The notes beneath the pieces were generated by a model. The model saw only the letters and a program-made list of their open reading frames with translations, searched no databases and was not told the DNA's origin. The position numbers and the translations under genes are program-made. Source: a virus (lineage: Duplodnaviria; Heunggongvirae; Uroviricota; Caudoviricetes). Taken from it: a stretch of 64,000 nt of DNA. Position 1 is the first letter of the stretch. Every line of letters begins with the position of its first letter. The stretch spans positions 72,820 to 136,819 of the IMG/VR virus record IMGVR_UViG_3300010356_003454; one strand, written 5' to 3'. This document shows positions 6,478 through 49,802 of this stretch, piece by piece.

Positions 6478-6501
6478 TTTAAATATACGTTAATTTTAAG
6501 G

Positions 6502-6536: not shown

Positions 6537-6563
6537 GACCATATAAATTAAAAAGAAGAGAAC

Positions 6564-8006: not shown

Positions 8007-8086
8007 ATCTTTGTTAAGAAATAATTAAGGGTCGTTAAAAGGGGATAAATAAGAGAGTAAAAATATAAAAATAATGTAAAATAAGT

Positions 8087-10684: not shown

Positions 10685-10692
10685 AAATAAAA

Positions 10693-10718
10693 GGCCTCGA
10701 AAAATCCGGGGCTTTTTT
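10693..10718 (+). terminator. rho-independent terminator
   Basis: ggcctcg-aaaaat-ccggggc hairpin followed by TTTTTT. Near-identical to the terminator at 63456. Confidence 0.55.
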
Positions 10719-10735
10719 GTGGGGATATATAATAT

Positions 10736-11164: not shown

Positions 11165-11192
11165 ATAGATATAAAGAATAAGAAGCTATATA

Positions 11193-12068: not shown

Positions 12069-12108
12069 TCTTAAAAACTTATTCCTCTTATCTTTTTATA
12101 AAGATTAT

Positions 12109-13819: not shown

Positions 13820-13892
13820 AAATCTTATTGGGCCTTATTTTATATAAAGATATATAGTATATATTAATGAAATTAATTACAGAAAGAGAAGG

Positions 13893-23448: not shown

Positions 23449-23966
23449 GAGCTAAAACTGTAAATTTCCAGAGGGGATTAGATCCGAAGGAGGCCTTGGA
23501 AATAGGTAATGAAAATCTAAGGCAATTCCATAAAGATATGGATAATGGAAATTTTTTGGCTCCTCTTCATATTTTGATGGATGGGCTGGAAAGAGGATAT
23601 ATCTCGGATAAAGAAGCTGATGAGTTTATAATTGGAGCAGTCAGAACTAGTGCTCCCAGATATTGGGAATGGACTAAATGGTTTGAGGATACAAGAAATA
23701 TCTATTGGTCTGAATTTAATGAGTCTCTAAATATTAATTTTACGCTTCCCGATTTTAAGAGGATTAAAACATGGATAGGTAAAATAACAGAACATGATGG
23801 AGGTTATTGGTTTAAGATGAGAACTTCTTCCACTGATAAAAATGGAAATGGATATGGCATAGAGACGGAAAATGTTTTTTCGGATGATGATTATGCTTTT
23901 ACATCTAAATTTATCTTGAATCAAATTAATAGAGTATTTACAGAAACAGTTAGAAATATAGATTAA
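23445..23966 (+). CDS. MRAK/FERG-leader family protein
   Basis: Leader MRAKTVNFQRGLDPKEALEIGN. Confidence 0.55.
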   Translation: MRAKTVNFQRGLDPKEALEIGNENLRQFHKDMDNGNFLAPLHILMDGLERGYISDKEADEFIIGAVRTSAPRYWEWTKWFEDTRNIYWSEFNESLNINFTLPDFKRIKTWIGKITEHDGGYWFKMRTSSTDKNGNGYGIETENVFSDDDYAFTSKFILNQINRVFTETVRNID

Positions 23967-26965: not shown

Positions 26966-27307
26966 ATGTCAGACATTACAAGAAGATTAGCAACAATTGA
27001 GAGGATATCAGCTATTAATCCTATACCGGATGCTGATGCAATTGAAAGGGCAACCATTCGAGGATGGAACGTAGTGGTTAAGAAGGGCGATCATAAAGTA
27101 GGAGATTTGGTTGTCTACTGCGAGATAGATTCTCTTATGCCCGAAAGGCCGGAATTCGAATTCCTTCGCCCGCGTGGGTTTAGAATAAAGACAATCAAAC
27201 TCAGAGGAACTTATAGTCAAGGTATAATTTTTTCATTAAATATTCTAAATTCGTCGGGAAATTTAATTGAAAAGGATGGAAAATTTTATCTGGAAATAGA
27301 TATATAA
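26966..27307 (+). CDS. hypothetical protein
   Basis: ORF. Confidence 0.3.
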   Translation: MSDITRRLATIERISAINPIPDADAIERATIRGWNVVVKKGDHKVGDLVVYCEIDSLMPERPEFEFLRPRGFRIKTIKLRGTYSQGIIFSLNILNSSGNLIEKDGKFYLEIDI

Positions 27308-27324: not shown

Positions 27325-28164
27325 ATGGAGATAGGTTATATTTATGCGATAATTAATAAAAGGAATGGTAAATTTTATTTTGGCAAAACCTTTGATATTC
27401 AAAAAAGGTGGAAAAAACATGTTTTTAATGCTACTAAAAAAATAAATCGAAAACTTTATGATTCTATGAATTCATATGGTTATGATTATTTTTCTATTCA
27501 TCAAATTGGAATATACAAAGCAGAAAATAAAAATGAATTAACTAAGATACTAAATGAAAGGGAAAGATACTTTATAAATTTTTCTGATTCTGTTTTACTT
27601 GGCTATAATATGGCTCCTGGCGGGGATGGCGGATATTTAGGGGAGGAAGCTATACAAAAGATATCAAATAAAAAGAAGGGAATAAATTTAACAGAGGAAC
27701 ATAAAAAACATATTTCAGAAGGGAATAAAGGGATTTCAAAAATAGTATCGGAAAAAACAAAGAACAGGATTAGAAAAACTTGTAAAGAAAAAGGAATAAA
27801 ACCGCCGGCACAATATTGGGGAAGACCCGGATATAATGAACATCCGATGCTAAATAAGCATCATACAGAAGAAGCCAGAAATCTGATGAGTCAATATAGA
27901 TCCGGGAAATCCTATGAAGAAATTTACGGAAAAGAAAAAGCAAAGAAATTGAGGTTGGAAAAATCAAAAAGATGGATGGGAAATAAAATAAACTTTAAGG
28001 AAGTAGATTTAGAATTAGCAGAAAATCTTCTTCAGAAAGGAAAAAATTATAAAGAAGTCGCAAAATTTTTAGGAATTAGTTTAACAACATTTAATTATAA
28101 ATTTCGAGAAAAACATAACATAACACCGTATCAATATAGTTTAAATTTAAAAATAATGTCATGA
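27325..28164 (+). CDS. GIY-YIG homing endonuclease
   Basis: MEIGYIYAIINKRNGKFYFGKT (canonical GIY-YIG). NUMOD3-like LTEEHKKHIS. C-terminal HTH-like region. Confidence 0.75.
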   Translation: MEIGYIYAIINKRNGKFYFGKTFDIQKRWKKHVFNATKKINRKLYDSMNSYGYDYFSIHQIGIYKAENKNELTKILNERERYFINFSDSVLLGYNMAPGGDGGYLGEEAIQKISNKKKGINLTEEHKKHISEGNKGISKIVSEKTKNRIRKTCKEKGIKPPAQYWGRPGYNEHPMLNKHHTEEARNLMSQYRSGKSYEEIYGKEKAKKLRLEKSKRWMGNKINFKEVDLELAENLLQKGKNYKEVAKFLGISLTTFNYKFREKHNITPYQYSLNLKIMS

Positions 28165-28706
28165 AAAAATTATCCGCTATTTTTGTTTTTTTATTGTTTG
28201 CTTTTCTGAGCTTTGGCCAAATTCCATTATCTATTAACAATATAGATGAATTCAATGGATCTGTTAATAAAGTCACCAGAAGCTCATACTCTGTATTTAA
28301 AAGTGAAAATTCCATCGGAAATATAAGTTTATCTATGGGAAGGGTAGATAGCACATATTTTCTAATATTAAGAGTATCTACAGATCTTGGATGCCTATCT
28401 CAATATGACGGAAAATGTATGATAAAATTTTCGGATGGAACTATACTTAATTTTGCCCAGGGATCGGAAACAGATTGTTCGGAGTCCCCTGCAGCTCAAT
28501 ACTATTTAGTTGCTCGAGAAGAAATGAATCTGGAAAATGTTTTTCAAATAATGAAAATAAACCGAGAAAAAATAGAGTCTTCTTCTATTGATAAAATTCG
28601 GGTTTATGGATCAAAATATTATGCAGATTATATTCCAAATCCAAAATTTAGAGAGGATTTTAATGCAAAAGATGTTCTTATTTTTCACATTAAATCTTTA
28701 AAATAA
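28161..28706 (+). CDS. secreted hypothetical protein
   Basis: N-terminal signal peptide. Confidence 0.35.
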   Translation: MKKLSAIFVFLLFAFLSFGQIPLSINNIDEFNGSVNKVTRSSYSVFKSENSIGNISLSMGRVDSTYFLILRVSTDLGCLSQYDGKCMIKFSDGTILNFAQGSETDCSESPAAQYYLVAREEMNLENVFQIMKINREKIESSSIDKIRVYGSKYYADYIPNPKFREDFNAKDVLIFHIKSLK

Positions 28707-29464
28707 TGAAACAATTGATAGAGCTTTCTGAAGGAACGGACGTAACCGGACTTCTTGGGATTACTAAATGGGAGCCTCAGATTCCTGCTTGCCTTGCCGG
28801 TCTTGCTAAGGGAGCCTTTCCTTCTCATTCCATCAAGACGGATGAGGAAAGGGTTCAGAACCTTGTGGACATATATGAGGAATACCGTACCAGATACACC
28901 TGGATTGCTACGGAAAAACTTGATGGATCGTCCACGACTTATTCTATTGTCAATGACGAATTTGGAGTTTCTTCTCGCAATCTGGAACTTAAAGAGACCG
29001 AGGATAATACCTTCTGGAAGGTTGCAAGAGCTCTTGATGTTGAGGAAAAAATGAGGAAGTATATGACTGATCACGGTCTTAATGCTTTGACTCTTCAGGG
29101 TGAACTTCTTGGAGAAGGGATTCAGAAGAATAAGTATCATCTTAAAGGCCATACAGTGAGATTCTTCAGGGTCTTCGATCCTACCGCTTATTCTTTCTTC
29201 CCATATCATCAGGCTATAAAGGCTATTGCAGAAATGGGACTTGATTTTGTTCCTGTTATTGAGACTGATATGACTCTTCCCGACACAGTTGAAGAGATTA
29301 TTCGCTATGCAGATGGAAGATCAGCTCTTTATGAAACTGCAAGGGAAGGAGTGGTATTCGTTGCTGATCAGCTTATTGATAAGTCTGCGGATCTTAGCAG
29401 ATACCAAGGAAGGCTTTCATTTAAGGTTATTTCAAACAAATTCATACTAAAACACGAAGAATAA
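28706..29464 (+). CDS. ATP-dependent RNA ligase (Rnl/PF09414-like nucleotidyltransferase)
   Basis: KxDG adenylation motif in ATEKLDGSST. Length and motif spacing fit small RNA ligases. Confidence 0.6.
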   Translation: MKQLIELSEGTDVTGLLGITKWEPQIPACLAGLAKGAFPSHSIKTDEERVQNLVDIYEEYRTRYTWIATEKLDGSSTTYSIVNDEFGVSSRNLELKETEDNTFWKVARALDVEEKMRKYMTDHGLNALTLQGELLGEGIQKNKYHLKGHTVRFFRVFDPTAYSFFPYHQAIKAIAEMGLDFVPVIETDMTLPDTVEEIIRYADGRSALYETAREGVVFVADQLIDKSADLSRYQGRLSFKVISNKFILKHEE

Positions 29465-32281: not shown

Positions 32282-32710
32282 ATGAAAAAGCTGATATTCC
32301 TACTATCGATAGCTCTTCTTTTTGCTTCATGCGAAAAAGAGCCGGAGCCTGAACCAGAACCGCAGACTCTAATAGAGTTTCTGGAAGGAGAGTGGACCTG
32401 CAATCGACAAACTGTTCAGGGCCATCAGGCAGATTTAACCCTGACATTTACAGAGGATAACTACACGTTATTTGTGGATTTTGCCGAGCATATTATTCCC
32501 AACTTTACAGCCACAAATAAGGGTTATCAAATTCTAAATGAAGACCGGAGAGTTCGATTAGATTATCCATATTCCCCAGAATCTTTCTTAGTAGAGTATG
32601 ATGTGGCTTGGACAGAGCTTAATCAGGAGAATATGACCTGGACTCCAAGACCAACTAATGAGAAGAATATAACGAGCAATCCTGTCATGCTAACCTGGAC
32701 AAGAAAATAA
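32282..32710 (+). CDS. putative lipoprotein
   Basis: MKKLIFLLSIALLFASCEKEPEP. Signal peptide plus lipobox Cys. Confidence 0.4.
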   Translation: MKKLIFLLSIALLFASCEKEPEPEPEPQTLIEFLEGEWTCNRQTVQGHQADLTLTFTEDNYTLFVDFAEHIIPNFTATNKGYQILNEDRRVRLDYPYSPESFLVEYDVAWTELNQENMTWTPRPTNEKNITSNPVMLTWTRK

Positions 32711-32794: not shown

Positions 32795-33457
32795 ATGAAT
32801 TTCGAAAGAGGCAAAGATCCGCTTAGGTCAATGGGAATAGGTCATTCTCAGAAGAGAGAATTCGCCAGCATTAGAGAGGCCGCAGAATGGGCTCTTCTCT
32901 TCCCTGCTGAATACACCGATGGCCAGATTACTAAATGGTCCAGGGATATGATAAGCTCTGGCAGGCTGGAACTTCCTAATGGAGTTCATACCGGTTGGCT
33001 TCAGATGGTTAAATGGATGAAGGATAATATCCGTATTCCCTCTCTTTTCGGGAATGAAAAAATTGGTCTTAAGGAGGCTAAAAATGTGATAGACCTTATG
33101 AGAGAAATGATCCCAGTCTATCTGATGAAGGGGGATAACCTGATGGCTAATTATAATACAGCTCTTAAGGAACTATACGATCATGTAGGATTCAAAGAGG
33201 ATTGGGTGGTATATCCCGTTGATGATAGAACAGATATGTTCTGGTCTCTTGATGGCGATTCTGCTGTAAGATATTCTGAGACCGAAGAAAAGCTTAAGGA
33301 CGAAGCTGCTGGTGAATACTACGAAGATGAAATTTACAAGCAGAGGTTCTATTCCAAATGGATCTATGAAGGCCAGGATCTCACCATGATTTTTGTCGAT
33401 ACTCATGTTGATGGCATGAGATACTTTGCAATATTTAGTAATTCAAAAAAGATATGA
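32795..33457 (+). CDS. FERG-leader family protein
   Basis: MNFERGKDPLRSMGIGH. Confidence 0.55.
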   Translation: MNFERGKDPLRSMGIGHSQKREFASIREAAEWALLFPAEYTDGQITKWSRDMISSGRLELPNGVHTGWLQMVKWMKDNIRIPSLFGNEKIGLKEAKNVIDLMREMIPVYLMKGDNLMANYNTALKELYDHVGFKEDWVVYPVDDRTDMFWSLDGDSAVRYSETEEKLKDEAAGEYYEDEIYKQRFYSKWIYEGQDLTMIFVDTHVDGMRYFAIFSNSKKI

Positions 33458-33756: not shown

Positions 33757-34081
33757 CAGGGATTCAGATATTAAAACTCGTCTTGGTATAGGAAGATATA
33801 CAGAAGAGAATCTGATTAGAATTATATCAGAAGCTCTTCGAAAATCTCATTCTTTTAGTGAATATGTTCTATCAAATATGCCGGTCTTGATATCTAGTCA
33901 TGTTGCTGAATGGATTCACCCTAAGACTGGCGGATATTTCAATCTTATAAAACCAGAAAAATTATCTATGGAATCTCATAATAAATTCCCTGGATATTTT
34001 ATTACTTATGACGATGGGGGATTTTCCTATGGTAATTTATCCCTATCAGCTTTTTTTAAAGATTTTAATATAGAGCTATGA
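33746..34081 (+). CDS. FERG-leader family protein
   Basis: MNFDRDSDIKTRLGIGR. Confidence 0.5.
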   Translation: MNFDRDSDIKTRLGIGRYTEENLIRIISEALRKSHSFSEYVLSNMPVLISSHVAEWIHPKTGGYFNLIKPEKLSMESHNKFPGYFITYDDGGFSYGNLSLSAFFKDFNIEL

Positions 34082-34410
34082 ATTTCGAAAGAGGTATAAG
34101 TCCTAAAAAATCAATGCGAATAGGCATTGGAAGTCAGGCTCTTCATTTAAGAGGCATTTATAATAGAAATATAATTTTCAGTACTTTACCTGATACCGAT
34201 GATACTGCGGTTGAATTTAGAGTAATCAATGGACCTGATGGACATAGGATTTTCAAAGAAATACAGGAAAATGGGATTCAATCGAAACATGAAAAGTATT
34301 GGGTTCATACAGGAGGGAGTCAAGGACATCTTCCTATTGATTGGATAGCTGGACGATGGATTGAGTATCTAAAGAGCTATTATAAAATACCAGAAAGAGA
34401 TGAATTTTGA
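34078..34410 (+). CDS. FERG-leader family protein
   Basis: MNFERGISPKKSMRIGIG. Confidence 0.55.
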   Translation: MNFERGISPKKSMRIGIGSQALHLRGIYNRNIIFSTLPDTDDTAVEFRVINGPDGHRIFKEIQENGIQSKHEKYWVHTGGSQGHLPIDWIAGRWIEYLKSYYKIPERDEF

Positions 34411-34678
34411 AAGAGGAAAAGACCCGAAAGAGGCTTTAGGAATAGGAATAGAACGAGCTGTTCTAAACATTATTCGGAGAAATATTTCGGATGCTGTTAT
34501 TTCTGTTGACGGGGAAATGAGAAAACATATAATAAGAGAAATAGAAAAATTTACTGGATGGAGAGAGGCAAAACATTGGACTTCTATGGATCAAAATAAG
34601 GTTTTTAGATTTATTAATCCGAAAGATGAAGCTAAAATAATTGTCATTAATTTAGATTATAGAAAAGACTATGCCTAA
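34400..34678 (+). CDS. FERG-leader family protein
   Basis: MNFERGKDPKEALGIGI. Confidence 0.55.
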   Translation: MNFERGKDPKEALGIGIERAVLNIIRRNISDAVISVDGEMRKHIIREIEKFTGWREAKHWTSMDQNKVFRFINPKDEAKIIVINLDYRKDYA

Positions 34679-34997
34679 TTTTGAAAGAGGAAAAAATCCA
34701 AAAGAAGCCTTAGGAATAGGCTTATTCTCAAAGAGATGTTTTGATTCAGTACTAGCTGCTAGAAAATGGCTAGTTCAAAATCATGTGGATATTTTAGGAT
34801 TGAATGGCCTTTGCGATCCATATCCTACTGAAGAGCAATTTGCAAATCTTCGAGCTTATGTTGAAAAATATATTTCCTATAGCGATGATGAATCTTGGAC
34901 ATCAGATAGCCTTGTTAATGGGGTAGCTCAGCTCTATAGGGAACTACATGAAGTAAGAAATTCTATTGGAAATATAATGAACGGTAATAATAGATAA
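34671..34997 (+). CDS. FERG-leader family protein
   Basis: MPNFERGKNPKEALGIGL. Confidence 0.55.
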   Translation: MPNFERGKNPKEALGIGLFSKRCFDSVLAARKWLVQNHVDILGLNGLCDPYPTEEQFANLRAYVEKYISYSDDESWTSDSLVNGVAQLYRELHEVRNSIGNIMNGNNR

Positions 34998-37095: not shown

Positions 37096-37611
37096 ATGAG
37101 AGCAAAAACTGTTAATGAGAATAATCAATTTGAAAGAGGACAGGATCCTAAAGATGCTATGGATATAGGAAGATACAAAGATCTTAAGGATAAAGATTTT
37201 GATATATGGAATTTTTTTCGATTTCTTCAGTTTAAAGAACATTCTGAAAGTAATGGAGTAACTTTTTATTCAAGAGGTGGGGGACAAGATGAATGCTATG
37301 ATTTTAAAAGAATTTATTATTTCGATGAATATAACTGGATTTCTGATGAAGAAATAATGGATATATTTAGTAGTATTAATAAAAAAGAGCTTCTTAAAAT
37401 TTCGGATAATATAGAGTTATTAGCTTTTAAAGGATCTACTCAACAGAGCACATATTCTTTCCAAGTAGTATTTAAGGGCGATTATCAAGATTATATGGAT
37501 AGGGGGGAGGAAGAGACTATTGAAAAAATAGAAGAATATATTTCAGAATACTTCACTGAAAATTCCGAAGAATTTATTAATTTTGAGGATGAAGAATATG
37601 AAGATGAATAA
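37096..37611 (+). CDS. MRAK/FERG-leader family protein
   Basis: MRAKTVNENNQFERGQDPKDAMDIGR. Confidence 0.55.
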   Translation: MRAKTVNENNQFERGQDPKDAMDIGRYKDLKDKDFDIWNFFRFLQFKEHSESNGVTFYSRGGGQDECYDFKRIYYFDEYNWISDEEIMDIFSSINKKELLKISDNIELLAFKGSTQQSTYSFQVVFKGDYQDYMDRGEEETIEKIEEYISEYFTENSEEFINFEDEEYEDE

Positions 37612-37627: not shown

Positions 37628-38128
37628 ATGAAACTAGTTGCTGAATCCCTAAATGAAATAAAAAATAGGGAAAAATTGATTAAAAGAAGGGAAAAATTAT
37701 TATCCGACTTAGAAAAAGCAAGATCTAATCATAAAAAAGCAGTGGATAGAAAGTCAGAATTTATTGAAAAATATGGAGAGGACGCTTGGTGGAATAATCT
37801 AAGCTATTACAAAGATGGGTATAATGCTTGGAAATATGAGAGAATGAGATATCCCGGAAAGGCTGCTTGGAATGGGGAAGGGCCCATACAGAGAGCGATA
37901 AATAATACATTTATTAAGAAATCCAATATTGAGGAGGAACTTAAAGAAATAGAGGCTAAATTATCTGGGGAGCAGGGGGAGACTGAATTAATGAATGATA
38001 AAGATGTATATATACCTGGGGTTTCGGAATATGACCCAGATCTGGATTATAAATATGCAATGACACATCCGGGCTATAAAGGACCCCCTGGAGGACCATA
38101 TACAAATTATTATAACGATCTGGATTAA
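37628..38128 (+). CDS. MKLVAESLNE-leader family protein
   Basis: Starts MKLVAESLNE, a second leader type shared with the genes at 47297 and 47948. AGAGGA lies upstream of the ATG. Confidence 0.45.
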   Translation: MKLVAESLNEIKNREKLIKRREKLLSDLEKARSNHKKAVDRKSEFIEKYGEDAWWNNLSYYKDGYNAWKYERMRYPGKAAWNGEGPIQRAINNTFIKKSNIEEELKEIEAKLSGEQGETELMNDKDVYIPGVSEYDPDLDYKYAMTHPGYKGPPGGPYTNYYNDLD

Positions 38129-40676: not shown

Positions 40677-41942
40677 GTGAGTAACTTTAATAAATATTGG
40701 ACTGCTAGGGGGAACTCAAAAAAAGCCGAGGTTTTTACCCCGTCTTTTTTAGTCAGAGAAATGCTTGATAAAATTCCTGCAGAAATTTGGAGGAGTTCAG
40801 AAACTATATTTTTAGATCCTTGCTTTGGATCCGGAACATTCATAAAATGCATCATTGAAAAGCTAAGGGAATATGGACATAGTGATGAGAATATTTCTAA
40901 AAGGATCTGGGGAGTAGAAATTAATAGAAAATGGTATAATAGGGTAAAACATTTCAGGATTGGCGAGTATAATATAAGAAACATCTATTGTGTAGATGCT
41001 CTAAATACAAATATTTTAGATGGTATGAAGTTTGATGTAGTATGTGGGAATCCGCCTTATCAGGGGAAAAAATTAGGGGGTGGAGCTGGATCTGGAAATG
41101 CTATATGGCATAAATTTGTAGTAAATGCTTTTAATGCTCTAAAGGAGAACGGATACCTTTGCTTAATTCATCCTATAGATTGGAGAACTAATCTTTCGCA
41201 GAAAAAGATTGAATCTGCTAGGAAAATTTTGATGACGAATCAAATAGAATATTTAAAATTAGCATCAGCCCCATTCCCTGGTATAGGAGCTTATGTTGAT
41301 TGGTATATTCTGAAAAAACGTGAGAAAAAAGAAAATACTTTAATAGATTTTCTGGATTGCCAAAAAAATGTTTTTTTAGATAATAAATTATTTCCTCTAT
41401 ATTCTTATAACAGCGATACTGTAAATTCAATAAAATCGAAAGTTTTAATGGATGCTACAAATAATCTAAATATGAGGAAACCATTTCACGGGTTAACTAT
41501 ATTAGATAGGTCTAAGCCAAAAGGAAAATATAAATTTGCTCATGGAACCGGATATACAAAAAATGAATGGAAATATTATGATTATCCGCATATTCATCAA
41601 TATCATAAAAAGGTTATAATGTCTTCCGTTAGGATACCTAGAGCTATTTATGATGATGGGAATATAGGGATCGGGGATCATGTTCATTATATTTTGGTTA
41701 ATAATAAGGAAGAGGGGGAATTTCTAACCTCTGTGATAAATAGCAAGCTTGGTATATTTCTGCAAAAGATTTTCGTTACTACCTTTTGGGATGGCGAATC
41801 CTCTCATTGGAATAATCCATATCCAATCTCTAAATTAAAAATAGACAATAGGAAATTCGAATCGGATATAGAGATCTATGATTATTTTGGATTAAGTAAG
41901 GAGGAGAGAGAATACATTGATAAAGAACTAAGAACCAAATAA
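40677..41942 (+). CDS. N6-adenine DNA methyltransferase (Eco57I/gamma-class-like)
   Basis: Motif I is LDPCFGSGTF. Motif IV is CGNPPYQG. GTG start. An in-frame TAA lies immediately upstream. Confidence 0.65.
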   Translation: MSNFNKYWTARGNSKKAEVFTPSFLVREMLDKIPAEIWRSSETIFLDPCFGSGTFIKCIIEKLREYGHSDENISKRIWGVEINRKWYNRVKHFRIGEYNIRNIYCVDALNTNILDGMKFDVVCGNPPYQGKKLGGGAGSGNAIWHKFVVNAFNALKENGYLCLIHPIDWRTNLSQKKIESARKILMTNQIEYLKLASAPFPGIGAYVDWYILKKREKKENTLIDFLDCQKNVFLDNKLFPLYSYNSDTVNSIKSKVLMDATNNLNMRKPFHGLTILDRSKPKGKYKFAHGTGYTKNEWKYYDYPHIHQYHKKVIMSSVRIPRAIYDDGNIGIGDHVHYILVNNKEEGEFLTSVINSKLGIFLQKIFVTTFWDGESSHWNNPYPISKLKIDNRKFESDIEIYDYFGLSKEEREYIDKELRTK

Positions 41943-41950
41943 TTAAATTT

Positions 41951-42817
41951 ATGAATATTTTCGAATTTTTACTAACATCTATTTTAAACTTCATGGTTGG
42001 AGTGTTAATTGCCTATTATTGCACACGATTTTGGGCTATTAAAACAAGTCCTGGCAAATCTTTATTGGATCAGCTAGCAAAAGATACATATTCTTTTTTT
42101 CAGGAAAATGGGGGAATGGAAGTTAGCGAAAATTATGTATTTTTTCATGTTCATAATAATTTTTTATTAGATTCGATTTATGATTATTATAGTAAGGATT
42201 TTTTTAAGAAGAGAGATGAGATTCAAAGAAATACCGGATATTTGAATAAAAAATATAAGGATTTTTTTTATTGCGTAGATAATTTATATAAAGGAATAAA
42301 CCAATTTTATATGAGCTATAAAGCTCAGTCAAAATTAGCAGATCATTACAGAGAAGAACTTATAAATTATTTTTCGGGACCTAGTAAATGGGATATAAAA
42401 GTTCCATATATTCTTTATTTTTTAGACAAAATGACTGGAGAAAATGAGATTTTTAAAAATTTTAGAGAGAATTTTTTAGATTATTATTTAAAATTAGGAA
42501 AATATAAAGATGTAAATACCGTTTCATTCCAATATGATCCTCATGAAATGAAACAGATTTTAAATTTATTTATTTTAAATAAGGATTTTTTTAAAAAGAC
42601 TATAAAAGAATTGGAATTAGGAGTTTCTACTATAACTAGCGAAAAATCCTGCAGAAAATATTATAGATCTGGTGAAATAATAAAATTATTGGAGGATTAT
42701 GAGGATTGCAAAAATAAACTAACTAATATTGAATTAGATAATAAGAAAGAAATAAAATATCTTATAGGGAAGATTCGAAACCATAAGTTATATCAATCAA
42801 TAAATAGTAAAAAATAG
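41951..42817 (+). CDS. membrane-anchored hypothetical protein
   Basis: N-terminal TM helix. K/Y/F-rich. Confidence 0.35.
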   Translation: MNIFEFLLTSILNFMVGVLIAYYCTRFWAIKTSPGKSLLDQLAKDTYSFFQENGGMEVSENYVFFHVHNNFLLDSIYDYYSKDFFKKRDEIQRNTGYLNKKYKDFFYCVDNLYKGINQFYMSYKAQSKLADHYREELINYFSGPSKWDIKVPYILYFLDKMTGENEIFKNFRENFLDYYLKLGKYKDVNTVSFQYDPHEMKQILNLFILNKDFFKKTIKELELGVSTITSEKSCRKYYRSGEIIKLLEDYEDCKNKLTNIELDNKKEIKYLIGKIRNHKLYQSINSKK

Positions 42818-42840
42818 TATAAATTTCTTGAATATATAAT

Positions 42841-43056
42841 ATGGAAGATCGATGGTACACATATAAAGAAATCCTCCAATTATTTGGGATCTGTAAGCAG
42901 ACTCTTTATAACTGGAGGAATAATGGTACTATCGAATACAAAGAAATTACTAAAAAGACTTTCTTGTATAAGCTTCCAAAAGAGAAAAATATTCAAAAAA
43001 ATGGATTACAAGAAGATTTACGAATCGATAATAGCGAAAGCAAAGAGCGAGAATAG
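42841..43056 (+). CDS. Xis/MerR-like HTH DNA-binding ORF
   Basis: YTYKEILQLFGICKQTLYNWRNNGTI is HTH_17-like. The last 56 nt overlap the HNH gene in the +1 frame across an A7 run. Confidence 0.4.
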   Translation: MEDRWYTYKEILQLFGICKQTLYNWRNNGTIEYKEITKKTFLYKLPKEKNIQKNGLQEDLRIDNSESKERE

Positions 43057-43696
43057 GAATAAGGGAAATGGAATTTATTATGAATCTCATCATATAGTTC
43101 CAAAATGTCTATGTGGATCAGATACTAAAGATAATAGAGTTCTTTTAACGGCTAAAGAGCATTTTGTTTGTCATAAGCTACTGGCAAGGATTTATCCAGA
43201 TAGTAATGGTATACGATTTTCGTTCTTTTTAATGTGTCAATCCAGCGATAATCAAGAAAGATATCAAATTTCCTCCAGAGATTATGAATATGCTTGTGAA
43301 TTAAATCGCCAAGCTTGTTTGGGAAATAGATGGAGAAGAGGAAAGAAAGCTCCTCATTCGGAGGAAACTAAAAAAATACTAAGCAAACATTTTTCGGAAC
43401 ATCTACCAAAATATGCTTTTAAAAAGGGAATGATTCCTTGGAATAAAAATACATTAACAGAGGATCAGAAGAAATATATTAAAGAGCATACATTATCGAT
43501 GGAATATATTTCTAAAAAATTTGGGATATCCAAAAGACAAGCAGGAGATTTAAAACATGGACATATAGATGGAAAAAGATTGGGAGTTACTGAAAAAGAT
43601 ATCCAATATATCAGAGAGCATACTCAAAATTGTGTTCAAATAGCTAATAAATTTAAAACAACTCAGAGAATTGTGAGTATAATTAAAAATAGTTAA
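43001..43696 (+). CDS. HNH homing endonuclease
   Basis: YESHHIVPKCLCGSDTKDNRVLLTAKEHFVCH is an HNH motif. Confidence 0.6.
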   Translation: MDYKKIYESIIAKAKSENRNKGNGIYYESHHIVPKCLCGSDTKDNRVLLTAKEHFVCHKLLARIYPDSNGIRFSFFLMCQSSDNQERYQISSRDYEYACELNRQACLGNRWRRGKKAPHSEETKKILSKHFSEHLPKYAFKKGMIPWNKNTLTEDQKKYIKEHTLSMEYISKKFGISKRQAGDLKHGHIDGKRLGVTEKDIQYIREHTQNCVQIANKFKTTQRIVSIIKNS

Positions 43697-44143
43697 ATGG
43701 ACGAGATAAAAAAGAAGGAATTAGAGGAGAGAAGAAAGGCCCGAAGAAAAATCAGCGCGGAAGATTTTACTCCGATTGAATTAGTTAATGAAATGCTCGA
43801 TAAGTTACCTGCTGAAGTATGGGCCGATCCTAATAAGACCTTTTTGGATAACAGTGGAGGAAATGGAAATTTTGTTGTTGAAGTATTAAGAAGAAAATTA
43901 GAAAGGGGCCACGATCCTCTTCAGGCTCTGTCCACAATATATTCTGTAGAACTAATGTATGATAACGTTGAAGAGATGCATCATCGCATGTACTCAATTG
44001 TTAAAGATTTTCTCCATACTCAAGAAGATAAAGACAAGGCATTCAAAATAATCAAGGAGAATCTGGTCTGCCACGACGCATTGACCTGGGATTACGAAAA
44101 CTGGTGCTCACCAAATACTCATCACGCAGTTCCTCTTTTTTAA
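43697..44143 (+). CDS. methyltransferase N-terminal-domain paralog (lacks catalytic NPPY half)
   Basis: FTPIELVNEMLDKLPAEVW...FLDNSGGNGNF aligns with residues of the 40677 MTase (FTPSFLVREMLDKIPAEIW...FLDPCFGSGTF). The ORF ends before motif IV. Confidence 0.45.
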   Translation: MDEIKKKELEERRKARRKISAEDFTPIELVNEMLDKLPAEVWADPNKTFLDNSGGNGNFVVEVLRRKLERGHDPLQALSTIYSVELMYDNVEEMHHRMYSIVKDFLHTQEDKDKAFKIIKENLVCHDALTWDYENWCSPNTHHAVPLF

Positions 44144-44225
44144 CTACTCCTTAACGATATATTCTATCTATTTTTAAAACTATTATTTTATATCTTATAA
44201 TAGGGATATAATTTAAACTAATAAA

Positions 44226-44741
44226 ATGGAAAAAGTAAAAGTATCGATTAATGTAATGGTTCATCCTAATCTTGTTCCTATGATTGAAAAATTCAATAAG
44301 ATCGGGGGAATCTATGATAACTTAAATTCAGGTCTTTTAAGCGAACCCTTAATGCCTCTATTTCTATCCGAACATTTTGGAGAGCCTGTGGAGTTTATTA
44401 ATGGTAATGGAATAGATTACAGAACATCAATAACTGGAAAAACTATTGAAAATAAGGCACTAACTATGTCTAAAGGATCTTCGGATTTAAAAAATTTCGG
44501 GGAGGTAAAAGAGAATTCTGATTATCTTTCTATTTTTCATCCGGACGAAAATAGGTTTTTTTTAATGCCTATGAAGGAAGCTCAAAAATTTCTTATAAAT
44601 GAGGATATTACAAATAACAAAGAGCATGTCCCTTTCTGCAAAAATCTGATTCCTTCAAGCCGAATATCTAAGGCCTCAATTAATACTATGCATCTTTTAA
44701 ATCATTCCGAAGAAATAAGTCTTTCTTTATTGGATAAATAA
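44226..44741 (+). CDS. hypothetical protein
   Basis: ORF. Confidence 0.35.
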   Translation: MEKVKVSINVMVHPNLVPMIEKFNKIGGIYDNLNSGLLSEPLMPLFLSEHFGEPVEFINGNGIDYRTSITGKTIENKALTMSKGSSDLKNFGEVKENSDYLSIFHPDENRFFLMPMKEAQKFLINEDITNNKEHVPFCKNLIPSSRISKASINTMHLLNHSEEISLSLLDK

Positions 44742-44758
44742 AGAAAAAGTATCCCTTA

Positions 44759-45988
44759 ATGAGAGCTCGATTTGTACTTTACGAATTCGCTAAAAACAAA
44801 GATTCTAAATATTATGCTCCTGATTATCTTATACAGGAGCTTATGGATGCTGTTAACAAGTATGTTCCTCTCCATGAGATAGATCATATAGTTGAACCAG
44901 CTTCTGGCGACGGAGCGCTAATACCTTTTATTGATAAGATAGCTAATGCCTATAATATTGATACCAGCTATTATGATCTAAAACCAGATCCAGGCAATCC
45001 TCGTATTGAACAGCAAAACTTCTTAGACTATTCTCCAGAACCATATTTCAGTCCATCTAGGCTTGTACTCACAGGACCACCTTATGGGGAACCTGGAGCT
45101 ACAGCCAAACTATGGAAGCAGTTCGCTCAGAAGGCTTCAGAGGTGGCAGGATATGTCGCTTTTATCTCTCCGGTTACTTGGCTTGATGTGAAACATCCTG
45201 TTCCTCATCTAGAACTTATCTATCAGAAGGACATGGGGTGGGTTAAATTCAGGGGCAGCGAAGCTTTCGGCGGTGAAGACCATCCTGTTAAGACTGCTAT
45301 ACTTATCTATAAAACTATCAAAGAGCCACAAACTGAAGACTTTTCATTTATAGATAACGATTTCATTATTCAGGAGATCTATGGTCGTGATAACTTCAGG
45401 AATAGAAAATACGATTATTATATTCTCTCCTGGGGCCGTGATTCAGGCAGAGTTAATACCTCAGGAAGGTATCCTGATGGCCGACTATTTTCTAAGGCAA
45501 TTGGAATAAAGGTCTTGGATGAGGCTCGTAGGGATGATTTAGAAGCGTTTTTAGAGACTTTCGAACAGGACTATAAGGATAAGATCGCCAGATACTCAAT
45601 TACAACAGCTAATGTCTTAAGTGTGCCTCGTTTTAAGAGATTTCTCGGAAACGCTCTATATTCGGGGATGAATGAATCTATAGACTTCGAAAGAGAAGGG
45701 AATCCATACGAGAAATTACGTATCGGTCGTAAGGTAACAAGGCCTTATCCTCAAATGAAGCCGAAAGAATTTTTTCAATGGTATCAGTCTGAGGCCTTTC
45801 CATATTATGATTCCGATGAGTTCTCTTTTTCTAGCGTGCTTTCAGATCTTGTTAATGACGAGGAGTCTACAGATGAAGAACTTCGAGAGGTATGGACTGA
45901 AGAACTTGATGTTCCAGAAGAAGTTATAGATAAACTATTACCTATGCGGGGTTATTTCTTAGATTTCCGCTATATTCAGAACATATGA
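44759..45988 (+). CDS. MRAR-leader protein with methyltransferase-like fold (non-canonical GPPY) and C-terminal FERG module
   Basis: Leader MRARFVLYEF. Motif-I-like EPASGDGAL. TGPPYGE sits where NPPY would be. A C-terminal FEREGNPYEKLRIGR...RPYPQM...MRGYF module is paralogous to the 46607 C-terminus. Confidence 0.5.
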   Translation: MRARFVLYEFAKNKDSKYYAPDYLIQELMDAVNKYVPLHEIDHIVEPASGDGALIPFIDKIANAYNIDTSYYDLKPDPGNPRIEQQNFLDYSPEPYFSPSRLVLTGPPYGEPGATAKLWKQFAQKASEVAGYVAFISPVTWLDVKHPVPHLELIYQKDMGWVKFRGSEAFGGEDHPVKTAILIYKTIKEPQTEDFSFIDNDFIIQEIYGRDNFRNRKYDYYILSWGRDSGRVNTSGRYPDGRLFSKAIGIKVLDEARRDDLEAFLETFEQDYKDKIARYSITTANVLSVPRFKRFLGNALYSGMNESIDFEREGNPYEKLRIGRKVTRPYPQMKPKEFFQWYQSEAFPYYDSDEFSFSSVLSDLVNDEESTDEELREVWTEELDVPEEVIDKLLPMRGYFLDFRYIQNI

Positions 45989-46617
45989 AACTAGTACCAG
46001 AACATATAGATGAGGTAATGGGCTTCCAAAGAGGAATAGATCCTAAGGAGGCTATTGGTATAGGAAGGCTAGCGAATATACCTAGCGAAAAGATCCGTAA
46101 TGCTTTTGCATGTGTCCGCAATTATTCTCTTGAAGATCTTGAGGATATGTATAGAAGGATTAGAGCTAAATCTAATATCTCTCTTGATGGAGTTCCTATA
46201 GAGAAATTATCTAATCATGAATGGATAGAATTTAATAATAAAGTTGTTAATGGTATTAAATCTCTTAGGAGAAGAAAGGTAAAAGCGGTCTCTCCATTTG
46301 GAGAAGGCGATATCCTAAAAGTAGTTCATCACGGAAGGACTTATTTTGGAGTTTATGATGGAATAGACAAACATGGGAGGATTAAGGCAAAGGGGAATAG
46401 GGCTAGATTAGCATTTGGCTTAGACAGATATACTCTCGCAACTCCGGAAGAGGCAGAAGCTTTTAGAAAAGAAGCAATTGAAAGAGAGAAACAGAGATGG
46501 GATTTGCAAATTCGCCGAGTTAAAATGCTGCTTTCAATGGGATCTGCTAAACCGGAAGATCTAGAAAGACTTATAAGAGACTATAAAAATACATTCCGAG
46601 AAGATTATGAGGGCTAG
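45985..46617 (+). CDS. FERG-leader family protein
   Basis: MGFQRGIDPKEAIGIGR. Confidence 0.5.
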   Translation: MKLVPEHIDEVMGFQRGIDPKEAIGIGRLANIPSEKIRNAFACVRNYSLEDLEDMYRRIRAKSNISLDGVPIEKLSNHEWIEFNNKVVNGIKSLRRRKVKAVSPFGEGDILKVVHHGRTYFGVYDGIDKHGRIKAKGNRARLAFGLDRYTLATPEEAEAFRKEAIEREKQRWDLQIRRVKMLLSMGSAKPEDLERLIRDYKNTFREDYEG

Positions 46618-47293
46618 AAGAGTCATAGAATCTATCAATTTCGAAAGGGGAAAGGATCCTAAAACAGTTATGGATATAGGAAGGACTAAATATGCGTTTC
46701 CTGTCGAAGATATTATTTTCAGAGGGGGAAATGTAATATCTCCTGAAGAGGGCGATAAGTATTTAAGGACAGTTTTACCTAGGAGATTGAAGAGCGTTAT
46801 ATCCAGGCCAGGTGCAGTTTGGAATTACCCAAGATTCAAAGATGGCCTTCATTATGCAGATGCTAAATGGATCATGAGACAAGGCTATAGCGGAATTAAA
46901 TATAAGGGAACTTTTTATCCATTTCCTAAAATAGAGGGATTTGATTTCCAAAGGAGCGGTGAAGAAGAAATCGATGAATCTGTAAATTTCGAAAGAGGAA
47001 AAGATCCTAAAAAGGTTTTACGTCTTGGAAGAGTTCGTCCGTATCCTGATATGACTGTGGAACAATTCCAGAGATGGTTTAGAGAAGAAATAGTTCCTTA
47101 TTTAGATGATGATGGTGAACAGGCTATTGTAGATAATCTATTGATGAATGATTGGGAGGCTGATTGGGAAGTAGCTGAATATTTAAGGGGAAGGCATCTG
47201 TCGCCGGAGATTGTTGACGATTTAATGTATATGAGGGGCTACTTTAATGACAGAGAATATATAAAGAGACTATTTGACGAAAAATTATTTTAA
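46607..47293 (+). CDS. MRAR/FERG-leader protein with two FERG modules
   Basis: N-terminal MRARRVIESINFERGKDPKTVMDIGR. Internal VNFERGKDPKKVLRLGRVRPYPDM...MRGYF. Confidence 0.5.
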   Translation: MRARRVIESINFERGKDPKTVMDIGRTKYAFPVEDIIFRGGNVISPEEGDKYLRTVLPRRLKSVISRPGAVWNYPRFKDGLHYADAKWIMRQGYSGIKYKGTFYPFPKIEGFDFQRSGEEEIDESVNFERGKDPKKVLRLGRVRPYPDMTVEQFQRWFREEIVPYLDDDGEQAIVDNLLMNDWEADWEVAEYLRGRHLSPEIVDDLMYMRGYFNDREYIKRLFDEKLF

Positions 47294-47296
47294 GAT

Positions 47297-47941
47297 ATGA
47301 AGCTAGTAGCAGAATCACTTAATGAGGCCTTAAATGAGGGAGCTCTTATAAAATTTGGAAGAAGCACGCAGAGTTTGAAAGAGGAGTATCCTATTTTCAA
47401 GAACTTATCTGTTGCAATGATACTTGAAGCTCTTCAGAGAGTGAATTCTACTCATTTTACAGGAGGAAAATTAGATTTATTCAAGTTCTATGACTTTATA
47501 AAGAAATTTAGGGGATATACTAAATCCTTTAATGATATGAAGGAGGTTATGACTGAAATCGCTCCGGTTTTAGGTATTGTGGATCAGATTCGCTTTTCTA
47601 GAGAGGAAAGGAGCGAGATTAAATTTAAAGAGAAAGCTCTAAATGGAGAGGTTCCTATAGAGTATTTTGATGAGGCTGAGATTCCAGAGGATACTATAGA
47701 AGATGAGGATTATGTTGTTAGAAGCATGGGCGGGGATACTGAACCCGCTTTCTATAGATTTGATAGAGAACTTAATCAGAGAGAGCGAAATCTATTAAGA
47801 GTATCTTATGCCCTTAATCATGGTAATCCTGAAGTTAGCACATGGAGAACTTATCTTGGTGCAGTTCCGGCTAAAGTAGGATTTGTTCGAAGAAATAATA
47901 GAAGTTTTGATTATACAGCAGGACTTGCAAAAAAGAGATGA
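47297..47941 (+). CDS. MKLVAESLNE-leader family protein
   Basis: MKLVAESLNEALNEG. Confidence 0.45.
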   Translation: MKLVAESLNEALNEGALIKFGRSTQSLKEEYPIFKNLSVAMILEALQRVNSTHFTGGKLDLFKFYDFIKKFRGYTKSFNDMKEVMTEIAPVLGIVDQIRFSREERSEIKFKEKALNGEVPIEYFDEAEIPEDTIEDEDYVVRSMGGDTEPAFYRFDRELNQRERNLLRVSYALNHGNPEVSTWRTYLGAVPAKVGFVRRNNRSFDYTAGLAKKR

Positions 47942-47947
47942 TAAAAT

Positions 47948-48571
47948 ATGAAATTAGTAGCAGAATCACTTAAGGAATTCTTAGGAATTAATAGGCTGGA
48001 CGAATTTGAGAGATCCGGAGATCCTCATAAGACTATGGGTATAGGACTCGAACCAGTTATTAAAGACTGGATGAGAAAGAATACTCATTATAATGTTGAT
48101 GAGAAGCCAGCCGAATACTCATGGAGAAAACCTCCTACAGTCTACAGTCTCTTATGGCTTTCTGTGAAGCATAATCATCCGCAGTGGGTTAAAGCTCTTT
48201 TGCAAAAGGGATATGATCCTAATGAGAACGGTGGTGCTGCTCTAAGATGGGCTTGCGGTCTTGGTTATAAAGATATAGTAGGTCTCCTTCTTGATGCTGG
48301 AGCTGATCCAGATGCTAAAGGACCAAGCGGTCCTCAGGAGGCTTATGAATGGGCAAGGCGAGAAGGTCATAGAGATATTATTAAAATGCTGGATATGAGT
48401 AAGGCGGGATATACTTTTACAGATAAAGGTCCGGATTTTGAACTACCAGAAGAGCCAGAAGAAGAGTCTAAAAAGACCCCCGAAGCTCCTCCCGTTCCGG
48501 CTAAGCCCGTAGAGCGACCCGAAGAGGAAGAGGAAGAGGAAGAGGAAGAAGAAAAAGGAGGCTGGTTTTAA
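47948..48571 (+). CDS. MKLVAESL/FERSGDP-leader ankyrin-repeat protein
   Basis: Leader MKLVAESLKEF...FERSGDPHKTMGIGL. Ankyrin repeats (NGGAALRWACGLGYKDIVGLLLDAGADPDAKG). C-terminal poly-E tail. Confidence 0.55.
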   Translation: MKLVAESLKEFLGINRLDEFERSGDPHKTMGIGLEPVIKDWMRKNTHYNVDEKPAEYSWRKPPTVYSLLWLSVKHNHPQWVKALLQKGYDPNENGGAALRWACGLGYKDIVGLLLDAGADPDAKGPSGPQEAYEWARREGHRDIIKMLDMSKAGYTFTDKGPDFELPEEPEEESKKTPEAPPVPAKPVERPEEEEEEEEEEEKGGWF

Positions 48572-49455
48572 TGAAGGCTATGAGAGTCATAGAATCGGTA
48601 GAATTTCAGAGAGGAGCAGATCCATATACTTCTTTAGGTATAGGAAAGTCTACTCAAAGGGATTTTTCTGGTGGTAAAGAACTCATAGAATGGGCTTATA
48701 ATTTTCCTGCAGTATGGTCTAAGGGGGAGATCCCGGAATGGAATGATTCTGATTACATAATTAGAAAACCATTCGGCGGATACCTCGAAGAAGTCTATAT
48801 ACAGAGAATGAGGAATATAAAGCTTATAGTAATAAAATGGATTAAAGATAATATTACTATTAATGGAGAGCCTTTAAGCCTTAAAGAAGCTATGAATATG
48901 TTTGAAGAAATTCAGAAGTTCGTTATTAAGAATCTAGAAAGGGAACGGGGAATTAGAGAGAGCATAGATTTTCATAAAGGAGGTAATCCGCTGGATACGC
49001 TAGAGGTTGGCAGAATAGAGGAAAGAAAGGATGCAGCATATAGATCTTTTATGGATTGGCTTTCTACATACTCATTTAAGGAGGCAGATGTTATTGAAGA
49101 GACTTATGATCAACCTTATGGATTCTTTGGTGATGATGAAAAGGAGGCTTTGATATTTAATGGATTAACTGTTGATGAAGTTTCTAAGAAAACTCCAGAA
49201 GAAATGGAGAGATATTTCAAAATTGTAGAAGAGGTTTTCGGCCTCACTTTTTGGGCCGCTGAAATAGCTAAATTGGAATATGAAGAATATAAAACTATGC
49301 CAGAGGAGGATAAAGAGGAGCTGGAGCAAAAGATAGAAGATGATTTTGGAACATATAATTTTTTGGAATATCTTGTAAAGTATTTCATTAATAAATGGCC
49401 AGGAAAGGTAAAAATAAAAGATCCATATGAGAGCAAAAAGCGTAAACGAAGCTAA
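48571..49455 (+). CDS. FERG-leader protein with two modules
   Basis: N-terminal MKAMRVIESVEFQRGADPYTSLGIGK. Internal IDFHKGGNPLDTLEVGR. Confidence 0.5.
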   Translation: MKAMRVIESVEFQRGADPYTSLGIGKSTQRDFSGGKELIEWAYNFPAVWSKGEIPEWNDSDYIIRKPFGGYLEEVYIQRMRNIKLIVIKWIKDNITINGEPLSLKEAMNMFEEIQKFVIKNLERERGIRESIDFHKGGNPLDTLEVGRIEERKDAAYRSFMDWLSTYSFKEADVIEETYDQPYGFFGDDEKEALIFNGLTVDEVSKKTPEEMERYFKIVEEVFGLTFWAAEIAKLEYEEYKTMPEEDKEELEQKIEDDFGTYNFLEYLVKYFINKWPGKVKIKDPYESKKRKRS

Positions 49456-49744
49456 TTTCGAGAAGGGACAAGATCCTAAGGATGCTCTGGGTATTGGAGT
49501 TGGCGAAAAACTCCGAATGGAGGGTATAGATGCTCTTACTCATTTCCTATATTATGCTAATGCAAAGGATATGATAAAAAAAGTCTGGAATGACTGGGAT
49601 CATATGTGGGATAAGCTAAAGAACAAAGTCGGGGATGGATATATGGATCCGAATGCTCTTATGAGTTTTATAAGAGATTTAGATGTGGAGAATCAGAAAA
49701 AGCTATATGATTATATTATAAAGAACCATTCGAATAAATGGTAA
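49427..49744 (+). CDS. MRAK/FERG-leader family protein
   Basis: MRAKSVNEANFEKGQDPKDALGIGV. Confidence 0.55.
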   Translation: MRAKSVNEANFEKGQDPKDALGIGVGEKLRMEGIDALTHFLYYANAKDMIKKVWNDWDHMWDKLKNKVGDGYMDPNALMSFIRDLDVENQKKLYDYIIKNHSNKW

Positions 49745-49773
49745 TTTTTTCTTAAATTTTAACGAAATTCCAG

Positions 49774-49802
49774 CCGTAATATTTTTTTATTACGGTTTTT
49801 TT
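49774..49802 (+). terminator. rho-independent terminator in a conserved module
   Basis: ccgtaata/tattacgg perfect 8-bp stem followed by a 7-T run, then TTGTTTATATTAGC and GTAATTAAAA. Preceded by AATTTTTTCTTAAATTTTAACG. Confidence 0.55.

Follow-up and report, generated by a model that had tools for sequence, protein, structure and literature searches.

A conserved 20-residue box fronts small, unrelated protein modules encoded singly or as fused chains in uncultivated tailed phages

The stretch of 64,000 nucleotides analyzed here (the window; positions 72,820 to 136,819 of the IMG/VR virus record IMGVR_UViG_3300010356_003454, Caudoviricetes) encodes many small protein units that are headed by one conserved peptide of 20 residues, which we call the FERG box. 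Each unit consists of the box at its N-terminal end and a variable soluble module of ~100 residues, and units are found as single genes in tight arrays or as in-frame chains of 2-12. Judged by its sequence, the box is a new family. We focused on the seven consecutive genes at 44759-49744, where a first-pass annotation, made from the letters alone, had proposed that the box marks off modules inside proteins as well as acting as an N-terminal signal. This proposal was borne out by the conservation of internal boxes in homologs, by fission of the proteins at the box, and by a stand-alone gene in a syntenic locus.

Results

Extent and conservation of the box

The first-pass annotation had named the letters FERG as the conserved element. 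That element is real, but the true one is longer and has 20 residues; counted from the Phe, it begins at -6 and ends at +13, and its consensus is [ILV]-x-E-S-[VLI]-N-F-E-R-G-x-D-P-K-x-[AS]-[ML]-x-I-G. The profile statistics come from 657 boxes in 167 proteins, and 508 of these boxes are internal; the 150 family representatives listed are skewed to multi-box proteins, and most related contigs are short. Over the 657 boxes, the most invariant residues were E (99%), F (99%), R (99%), G (92%), P (94%, at +6), and the terminal G (97%). Position +5 was D, N, or E in 92% of boxes, and the tail before the terminal G was [AS] in 81%, [ML] in 90%, G in 41%, and I in 73%. Among the internal boxes, position -6 was I, L, or V in 81% and position -4 was E in 99%. 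Information content fell to background by -7 and +14, which gives the box sharp edges, and no co-varying positions were seen downstream. Internal boxes were conserved at least as well as N-terminal ones. They also had a signature of their own, with S at -3 in 81% of cases vs 20% at N-termini, and they carried no relic of the M-R-A-K start. Gene ends of the 'YES*/YEG*' type overlapping 'ATGAGRGC' starts were considered as a frame-change origin of the internal E-S, and this was rejected because internal E-S is mostly encoded by GAA TCT.

In the 18 boxes of the window, pairs of the same residue used the identical codon in 51.5% of cases, against 43.8% expected from genome codon usage. Selection acts on the box peptide and not on the DNA, with virtually no DNA homogenization. 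Since synonymous sites are nearly random and the residues are 92-99% invariant, the box is not a mere recombination scar, and it may aid in-frame shuffling as a side effect.

A regular expression for the box gave 14 matches in the window, all on the + strand and in the coding frame, and none in the other five frames. A profile hidden Markov model (HMM) built from the boxes gave 18 matches at E<1e-3, only in coding frames. Eight of the 18 lie in the array at 44759-49744, and their coordinates were checked by translation. No Pfam domains were found in the other FERG-unit genes of the window (Table 1).

Other leaders were also observed. A second type, MK[LI]V[AYK]ESL[NQK]E, equals the first half of the box without FERG; it occurs in the window at 37628-38128, 47297, 47948, and 4736 as well as in three related loci (L004, L005, L017), and in relatives it also heads non-FERG proteins. 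In addition, paralogs in two loci (L013 5457-9998 and L001 74-2086) share another N-terminus, M-x-F-[QK]-S-[LI]-x-x-W..., and lie beside FERG genes and gp32. The box-bearing phages may use more than one leader family.

The array at 44759-49744

All seven open reading frames (ORFs) of the first-pass annotation are present on the + strand, packed tightly with stops and starts that overlap or nearly abut. They form a single operon-like, transcription-unit-like block of eight box units plus a methyltransferase-like domain (Table 1; genes are named by their first position). The annotation had given leaders to all seven genes and a second, internal box to 44759, 46607, and 48571. The second box was found in 46607 and 48571, whereas the internal box of 44759 is its sole box. 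Likewise, 47297 has only the half-leader MKLVAESLNE and 44759 only the remnant MRARFVLYE, both without an N-terminal FERG.

The remnant in 44759 corresponds to the first ~8 leader residues, and the same N-terminus is present in 7/7 homologs. The following part, within the N-terminal ~300 residues, resembles DNA methyltransferases (PHROG 799, 9e-10) and contains EPASGDG as S-adenosylmethionine motif I. Its catalytic motif is GPPY in all homologs, vs the pattern [DNS]PP[YFW] of N6-adenine methyltransferases, and a Pfam search of 44759 gave no match. As the annotation had stated, 44759 and 46607 have their C-terminal module in common (35% identity over 106 aa, E=1e-19). In the RPYP module cluster, which has 8 members, it is the last module of the protein in every case.

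The two boxes of 46607 scored 52.7 bits (N-terminal) and 48.6 bits (internal) in the HMM search. In 47297 the box HMM gave no significant match, and the N-terminus of this gene is common to 37628 and 47948. The latter, whose box scored 14.8 bits, was correctly described as an ankyrin protein with a poly-Glu tail: Pfam Ank_2 matched at 1.5e-17 (64.4 bits vs a gathering cut-off of 27.3) and Ank at 40.9 bits vs 21.1, and a run of 11 Glu covers residues 192-202. Ankyrin modules recur behind boxes elsewhere in the family, and the annotation's remark on phage ankyrin proteins, that they are uncommon and linked to host interaction, holds within its limits. The boxes of 48571 scored 36.9 bits (N-terminal) and 12.8 bits (internal), the latter being the weakest of the eight in the array, and its first unit showed 36% identity to window gene 32795.

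The exact 14-mer TAAAGAAAAAGTAT occurs only twice in the window, at 2586-2599 and 6 nt 5' of 44759, each time 5' of the first gene of a FERG array. An alignment of the upstream regions placed it inside a similar ~40-nt stretch at both array starts. This region is a candidate shared promoter or 5' untranslated region.

Table 1. Coordinates of the array, its parts, and other features of the window
Feature	Position	Strand	Description
Upstream element	44739..44752	+	TAAAGAAAAAGTAT; 6 nt 5' of the first gene of the array
Gene 1	44759..45988	+	409 aa; leader remnant MRARFVLYE, methyltransferase-like domain (~300 aa), internal box, C-terminal RPYP module
Internal box, gene 1	45668..45727	+	MNESIDFEREGNPYEKLRIG; FEREG-x-P variant; HMM 19.9 bits, E=2e-5
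C-terminal RPYP module, gene 1	45728..45985	+	35% identity to the C-terminal half of 46607
Gene 2	45985..46617	+	210 aa, one unit; leader MKLVPEHIDEVMGFQRG...; box 46006-46065, HMM 31.1 bits
Gene 3	46607..47293	+	228 aa, two units; boxes 46622-46681 (N-terminal) and 46970-47029 (internal)
RPYP module, second unit of gene 3	47030-47290	+	
Gene 4	47297..47941	+	214 aa; half-leader MKLVAESLNE only, FERG part lost
Gene 5	47948..48571	+	207 aa; half-leader MKLVAESLKE, 10-aa insert, box 47987-48046, ankyrin repeats ~48140-48403, poly-Glu 48521-48553
Gene 6	48571..49455	+	294 aa, two units; boxes 48586-48645 (N-terminal) and 48952-49011 (internal, diverged)
Gene 7	49427..49744	+	105 aa, single minimal unit; box 49439-49498, HMM 32.6 bits
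Terminator-like hairpin and T-run	49772..49797	+	10-bp stem followed by T tract; closes the array
Other FERG-unit genes of the window	2605-3039, 3039-3407, 3954-4739	+	HMM 23-49 bits, in frame
Further FERG-unit genes	10736-11164, 23445-23966, 32795-33457, 34078-34410, 34400-34678, 34671-34997, 37096-37611		HMM 23-49 bits, in frame
NATAAATA sites	e.g. 8044, 20709, 22874, 36677, 44733, 54269	+	

Fused units and their separate relatives

The internal boxes might have been chance similarities, and this was tested with homologs, in which they proved to be conserved. Both boxes are retained in three homologs of 46607 (P0001-P0003), as is the RPYP module, and in these the first module is swapped. Among the homologs of 44759, four retain the internal FEREG-type box with its module, and the three shorter ones end at ...ALY(ES), just ahead of the box; the FEREG-x-P variant is kept in P0173, P0174, P0176, and P0179.

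In a syntenic locus (L017), the first gene is a stand-alone RPYP-like module with a MKLVYESLNE leader. It is followed by a short methyltransferase form and then by a homolog of 45985 that is 54% identical and bears the canonical leader MRAKLIFEFERG. The last is a stand-alone gene of 103 residues, MRAKTVNFERGLDPKKAMNIG..., which begins MRAKTVNFERG. This gene shows 54% identity to the second half of 46607 (E=7e-35), and its leader aligns to the internal box of the window gene. For every window module, homologs were also seen behind boxes elsewhere, in other proteins and in other positions. In P0111, an internal module shows 54% identity to the first module of 46607, and the first module of 48571 is homologous to internal modules of P0043, P0121, and P0118, each behind a canonical box. 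On these alignments, the internal boxes are leaders of units, which are joined in the window genes and encoded apart in relatives.

Distribution, unit size, and modules

The box profile, searched against 1.84 billion representative proteins, matched at least 1,799 metagenomic clusters (E<=1e-3), and at E<=1e-30 the number was 96. The largest number of boxes per protein was 12, in 1,511 residues. In 721 kb of related loci, 603 boxes were found in 424 ORFs, and 78% of these ORFs were single-box. The median spacing of boxes within chains was 117 residues (5-95%: 93-159), and the median distance from the Phe to the stop was 119 residues in 331 single-box ORFs of the same loci, showing that a unit has the same size whether it stands alone or is chained. 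Clustering of the 650 inter-box modules by BLAST gave 248 clusters (155 singletons). The modules seldom repeat inside one protein and vary in position, and they are soluble (a transmembrane-like segment in 2/650), Cys-poor, and of mixed charge, with 57% acidic.

Few of these sequences matched known families. When Pfam was applied to eight chains (~70 modules), ankyrin alone was recognized, and NCBIfam gave no match to FERG chains. The box had no counterpart in Pfam, NCBIfam, or PDB. PHROGs gave no significant match for box-bearing proteins except for the methyltransferase domain and weak matches over the ankyrin repeats. No match was found in 50,697 GenBank phage records by tblastn with the consensus double box and a six-box protein, or in GenBank phages by blastn with the array region. 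The degenerate DNA pattern for NFERGKDPK was present at 0 loci in GTDB (one genome each of 185,579 prokaryotic species), and it was found on 12 IMG/VR contigs (up to 133 kb) and at 100 metagenome loci. A protein search of IMG/VR for close relatives of 46607 found none, and a profile of the 40-aa box alignment returned only 5 short fragments from a set of 5.8 billion proteins and was uninformative. Literature searches on the motif, and on polyproteins or leaders of jumbo phages, gave nothing relevant. One protein cluster (P0008) has a member in a metagenome-assembled genome of 'Candidatus Paceibacterota bacterium' and another on a 46-kb IMG/VR viral contig; the former is probably a phage contig binned into a genome of the candidate phyla radiation.

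Predicted structures

AlphaFold2 models of 46607 (34-sequence alignment) and of 47948 alone had a mean predicted local distance difference test score (pLDDT) of ~52, and they were used solely for a qualitative statement on the boxes. The boxes were modeled as low-confidence coil with a one-turn helix at D-P-K-x (pLDDT <50-60), beside better-predicted modules. In 47948, pLDDT was 66-79 in the ankyrin region and <50 for residues 1-33. The module folds differ in class, including beta plus helix, all-helical, and ankyrin. These models suggest that the box fits an exposed linear motif better than a part of a common fold.

Genome context and host

The window genes all lie on the same strand, and no tRNAs are present. 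They include genes for a class II-like ribonucleotide reductase (RNR), a T4 gp43-type family B DNA polymerase (PolB), an NAD ligase, a CCA-adding enzyme, an SPFH protein, a dUTPase, an RNA ligase, and several GIY-YIG and HNH homing endonucleases. The PolB is 39% identical to the Lak gp43-like PolB, its closest relative among T4-type polymerases, and the RNR is nearest to those of uncultivated huge phages (43%). By its T4/Lak-like replication genes, the phage is related to T4 and Lak. Gene starts have an A-rich context and no Shine-Dalgarno (SD) sequence, and lipoprotein-type signal peptides ending in Cys are of the Bacteroidota style (715-1077, 32282-32710). From the missing SD sites and the lipoprotein signals, we infer a Bacteroidota-like host.

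In box-bearing relatives, gp32, primase, and a gp41-like helicase adjoin FERG genes. One related locus (L019, JGI Ga0114918_10003375, 1736-14100) contains a gp5-like baseplate hub gene (PF04717, PHROG 430) followed directly by nine consecutive FERG genes with 30 boxes in 11.5 kb, including ORFs with 6, 6, and 9 boxes. The sequence NATAAATA, which resembles the T4 late promoter, lies <=40 nt 5' of a start in 6/18 occurrences vs 6% expected. It was rejected as a marker of a late-promoter class, since the genes are heterogeneous, RNR and a homing endonuclease among them, and no class could be assigned.

Several other features were observed in the window. Three methyltransferase-like genes lie at 40677-45988, namely an Eco57I/N6_Mtase-type gene (40677-41942), a PHROG 21201 gene (43697-44143), and 44759, and an HNH homing endonuclease (42884-43696) lies within this cluster. 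The RNA ligase is apparently split into N- and C-terminal ORFs (26966-27307, 27325-28164, 28706-29464), with a GIY-YIG gene and a 181-aa ORF between. The PolB ORF (6564-8006, 480 aa) comprises the exonuclease domain together with the initial third of the polymerase domain. The missing part was not located, and the gene may be a split one of the kind known in some T4-like phages. A 457-aa protein (1154-2527) has a very long acidic, low-complexity, Glu/Gly-rich region and no family match.

Discussion

A single exposed and apparently unstructured peptide stands on hundreds of unrelated modules, and a single shared partner acting in trans is therefore its most likely reader. By analogy with T4, the box may be a tag for head targeting and processing, a reading to which we give a real but somewhat less than even chance. 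In T4, a 10-residue capsid targeting sequence (CTS) common to otherwise unrelated internal proteins loads them into the head or scaffolding core, and the protease gp21 cuts after L/I-x-E, so that core proteins are cleaved into several fragments (PMC9026906, PMC3012670). According to the T4 record, ipII and ipIII share MKTYQEFIAE. On this model, the box would steer the units into the assembling prohead, where the prohead protease would cut after the invariant Glu of [ILV]-x-E-S and split chains into ~100-residue pieces. Such pieces would be small enough to exit via the tail with the DNA, and once released they might act as pre-made host-takeover or anti-defense effectors. The strongly conserved stretch NFERGxDPKxAMxIG, which follows the cut, would serve for docking, perhaps to the scaffold or to the inside of the HK97-fold shell.

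Several observations are consistent with the head-targeting model. The start of the box, [ILV]-x-E-S, matches the L/I-x-E motif of T4-type prohead proteases, which is a motif match only and not cleavage. Use of the internal boxes as proteolytic sites is plausible given this motif, and no protease was identified. The pattern I-x-E-S-[VI]-N occurs twice in the T4 scaffold gp22, as IFESVN and ITESIN at residues 22-27 and 226-231 (NC_000866 gene 22; L123 6118-6927), and at no other place in the 13.8 k residues of T4 ORFs examined; within the window, only leaders and boxes contain it. gp22 is a known gp21 substrate. In addition, the constant unit size of ~100 residues across unrelated folds suggests an external size limit, and the T4 literature argues likewise for the compact IPI*, which must leave through the tail (PMC3012670). 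The relation of the phage to T4 and Lak, the 30-box array directly behind the baseplate hub gene of L019, and the likeness of the box tail to encapsulin targeting peptides agree with the model as well.

Other observations weigh against head targeting. The 64-kb window contains no gene for a prohead protease, a scaffold, or a capsid protein, and phmmer queries with T4 gp18-gp24 found no match in the 721 kb of box-bearing loci, a search of weak sensitivity on short loci. Neither this search nor the window revealed a capsid gene adjoining FERG arrays. When flanking head genes were sought, contigs carrying the last gene of the window were only 2-5 kb long, and its first gene was not on record. FERG genes lie mostly in replication or nucleotide-metabolism neighborhoods, and ~20 units in 64 kb is a large number for capsid cargo. 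The best-conserved residues are downstream of the proposed cut, which a simple removable propeptide would not predict. Many units start directly with M-N-F-E-R-G and lack [ILV]-x-E, indicating that this part is not needed at N-termini. The resemblance to gp22, like that to encapsulin peptides discussed below, is short and was found post hoc, and the likeness to the T4 CTS is functional and architectural, not one of sequence homology.

The box might instead be a cytoplasmic address or processing tag unrelated to the capsid. It could be the site of a dedicated phage protease, in the manner of polyproteins or polyubiquitin, or it could dock onto one partner, of host or phage, that all units have in common; a chaperone, protease adaptor, compartment import machine, or modifying enzyme are examples. 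The regular 20-aa separator, the constant unit size, and internal boxes conserved at least as well as terminal ones speak for such a tag just as they do for head targeting. Also in its favor are the early or replication-type neighborhoods of most FERG genes, with their own terminators and promoter-like elements, and the modules, 57% of them acidic, which resemble typical small early proteins. However, no candidate protease or partner was identified adjoining the arrays, one large array adjoins the baseplate gene, and the constant size of ~100 residues is better explained by a passage constraint. We regard a cytoplasmic tag as rather unlikely.

It is more doubtful still that the box is a structural element without processing. 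In that case it would be a common N-terminal strand-turn-helix, for example for strand-exchange oligomerization, or a nucleic acid-contacting hairpin like half of a helix-hairpin-helix (HhH) motif (h-G-I-G), and the chains would be genuine multidomain proteins. The pattern G-x-D-P-K is what a turn leading into a helix N-cap typically looks like, in line with the one-turn helix modeled there, and we take the 'GIG' hairpin of the box to resemble the HhH signature. Constant unit length could also mirror a shared size class. But the modules span different fold classes and ~250 unrelated families, the box ends sharply without co-varying positions downstream, and its prediction confidence is low compared with the adjacent domains. 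Moreover, neither a Pfam HhH model nor any other matched the FERG proteins in this respect, even at E<=0.1.

Two further explanations have very little in their favor. Other proteins are known to cleave themselves at Asp-Pro or Asn-Pro bonds, and the conserved residues at +5 and +6 could form an autoproteolytic or acid-labile (D/N)-P bond (GDPH/NPTH-type) that frees the units without a protease. Such sites are known to sit in folded, bond-straining domains, whereas the models predict an unstructured box; D-P, moreover, often serves as a helix N-cap, and no similarity to GDPH, SEA, or FlhB modules was found, making a self-cleaving linker highly improbable. It is equally hard to believe that the box is a by-product without peptide function, that is, a recombination junction or initiation region copied with cassettes. 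The modules are clearly shuffled among positions and proteins, and the first four codons (MRAK, often ATGAGAGCTAAA) are conserved at the DNA level at several starts, including some of non-FERG genes, which may reflect translation initiation in a system without SD sites. Nevertheless, codon identity is close to that expected while the amino acids remain invariant across thousands of divergent proteins, and internal boxes carry their own Ser signature in place of the MRAK relic; these findings point to purifying selection on the peptide, and the codon comparison largely refutes a shuffling by-product.

Comparison with known systems shows both likeness and difference. Like the CTS of T4 (IPI/IPII/IPIII, Alt; gp21), the box is a short N-terminal peptide on small, otherwise unrelated proteins, and it fronts 248 module clusters. 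T4 CTS proteins are fast-evolving and scattered in hyperplastic regions of the T4-type genome, and their CTS ends in hydrophobic-x-Glu (PMC9026906, PMC3012670). The box, however, has twice the length of the CTS, and the half that is conserved best follows the putative cut; it also occurs internally, up to 12 times per protein, and on hundreds of families and not a handful. The box leader shares with T4 internal protein leaders no more than M-[KR] and a Glu.

The ejection or inner-body paralogs of giant phages (phiKZ gp93-95, SPN3US gp53/gp54) offer another parallel, with large capsids, many packaged proteins, and propeptides. Diverged ejection-protein paralogs of SPN3US share MANFVKSKLARESVE, with a predicted cleavage after ARE (AXE-12) (PMC5694885). 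As with the box, such paralogs keep identical N-termini with x-x-E-S sites, cut between E and S by a gp21-like protease (PMC5694885). Their propeptides, in contrast, are family-specific and 15 to >100 residues long, with no known unit chains and no FERG-like motif. In its number of families, its internal use, and its regular chains of up to 12 units, the architecture of the box exceeds both the T4 CTS and the giant-phage propeptides.

Encapsulin targeting peptides, with the consensus DGSLGIGSLKG, dock inside an HK97-fold shell via an L-G-I anchor (PMC7925596). These peptides are short and flexible and are carried by unrelated cargo, and the tail of the box, [AS]-[ML]-G-I-G, shows a resemblance to them over five residues only. 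They are usually C-terminal and encoded beside the shell gene, whereas the box is always on the N-terminal side of a module and never ends a protein. Viral polyproteins and polyubiquitin-type precursors are similar in having several units in one ORF with a recurring, regularly spaced site, although no protease domain was found in or beside the FERG chains. Phage polyvalent proteins also combine several functional units per ORF and are considered to be injected with phage DNA and processed (Iyer et al. 2017, cited in PMC7824862). They have recognizable enzymatic effector or peptidase domains and no repeated separator (PMC7824862), while the FERG units are ~100-residue orphans with an invariant 20-residue separator and also occur as single genes.

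Taken together, the box may be a universal, position-independent address label of an undescribed system in large T4/Lak-related phages. Such a system would comprise hundreds of mini-effectors of ~100 residues, made singly or as polyproteins of up to 12 units, with one machinery processing or loading all of them. We put this forward tentatively, as a possibility whose chances are below even. If it is true, this would be the first regular polyprotein organization and the first such generic cargo tag in tailed dsDNA phages. If the box is a loading or processing signal, it would mark the whole repertoire delivered to or deployed against hosts, with hundreds of orphan families, some ankyrin and one methyltransferase-linked, and from sequence alone it would provide a route to the anti-defense and host-takeover effectors of uncultivated phages. 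A portable tag of 20 residues would also be of practical use in packaging foreign proteins, for which the T4 CTS has already served. Models of the box are absent from current domain libraries (Pfam, NCBIfam). Whatever the mechanism, the family shows that regular 'beads-on-a-string' proteins exist in tailed phages and that a conserved peptide marks the points where their units are freely joined, separated, and reshuffled.

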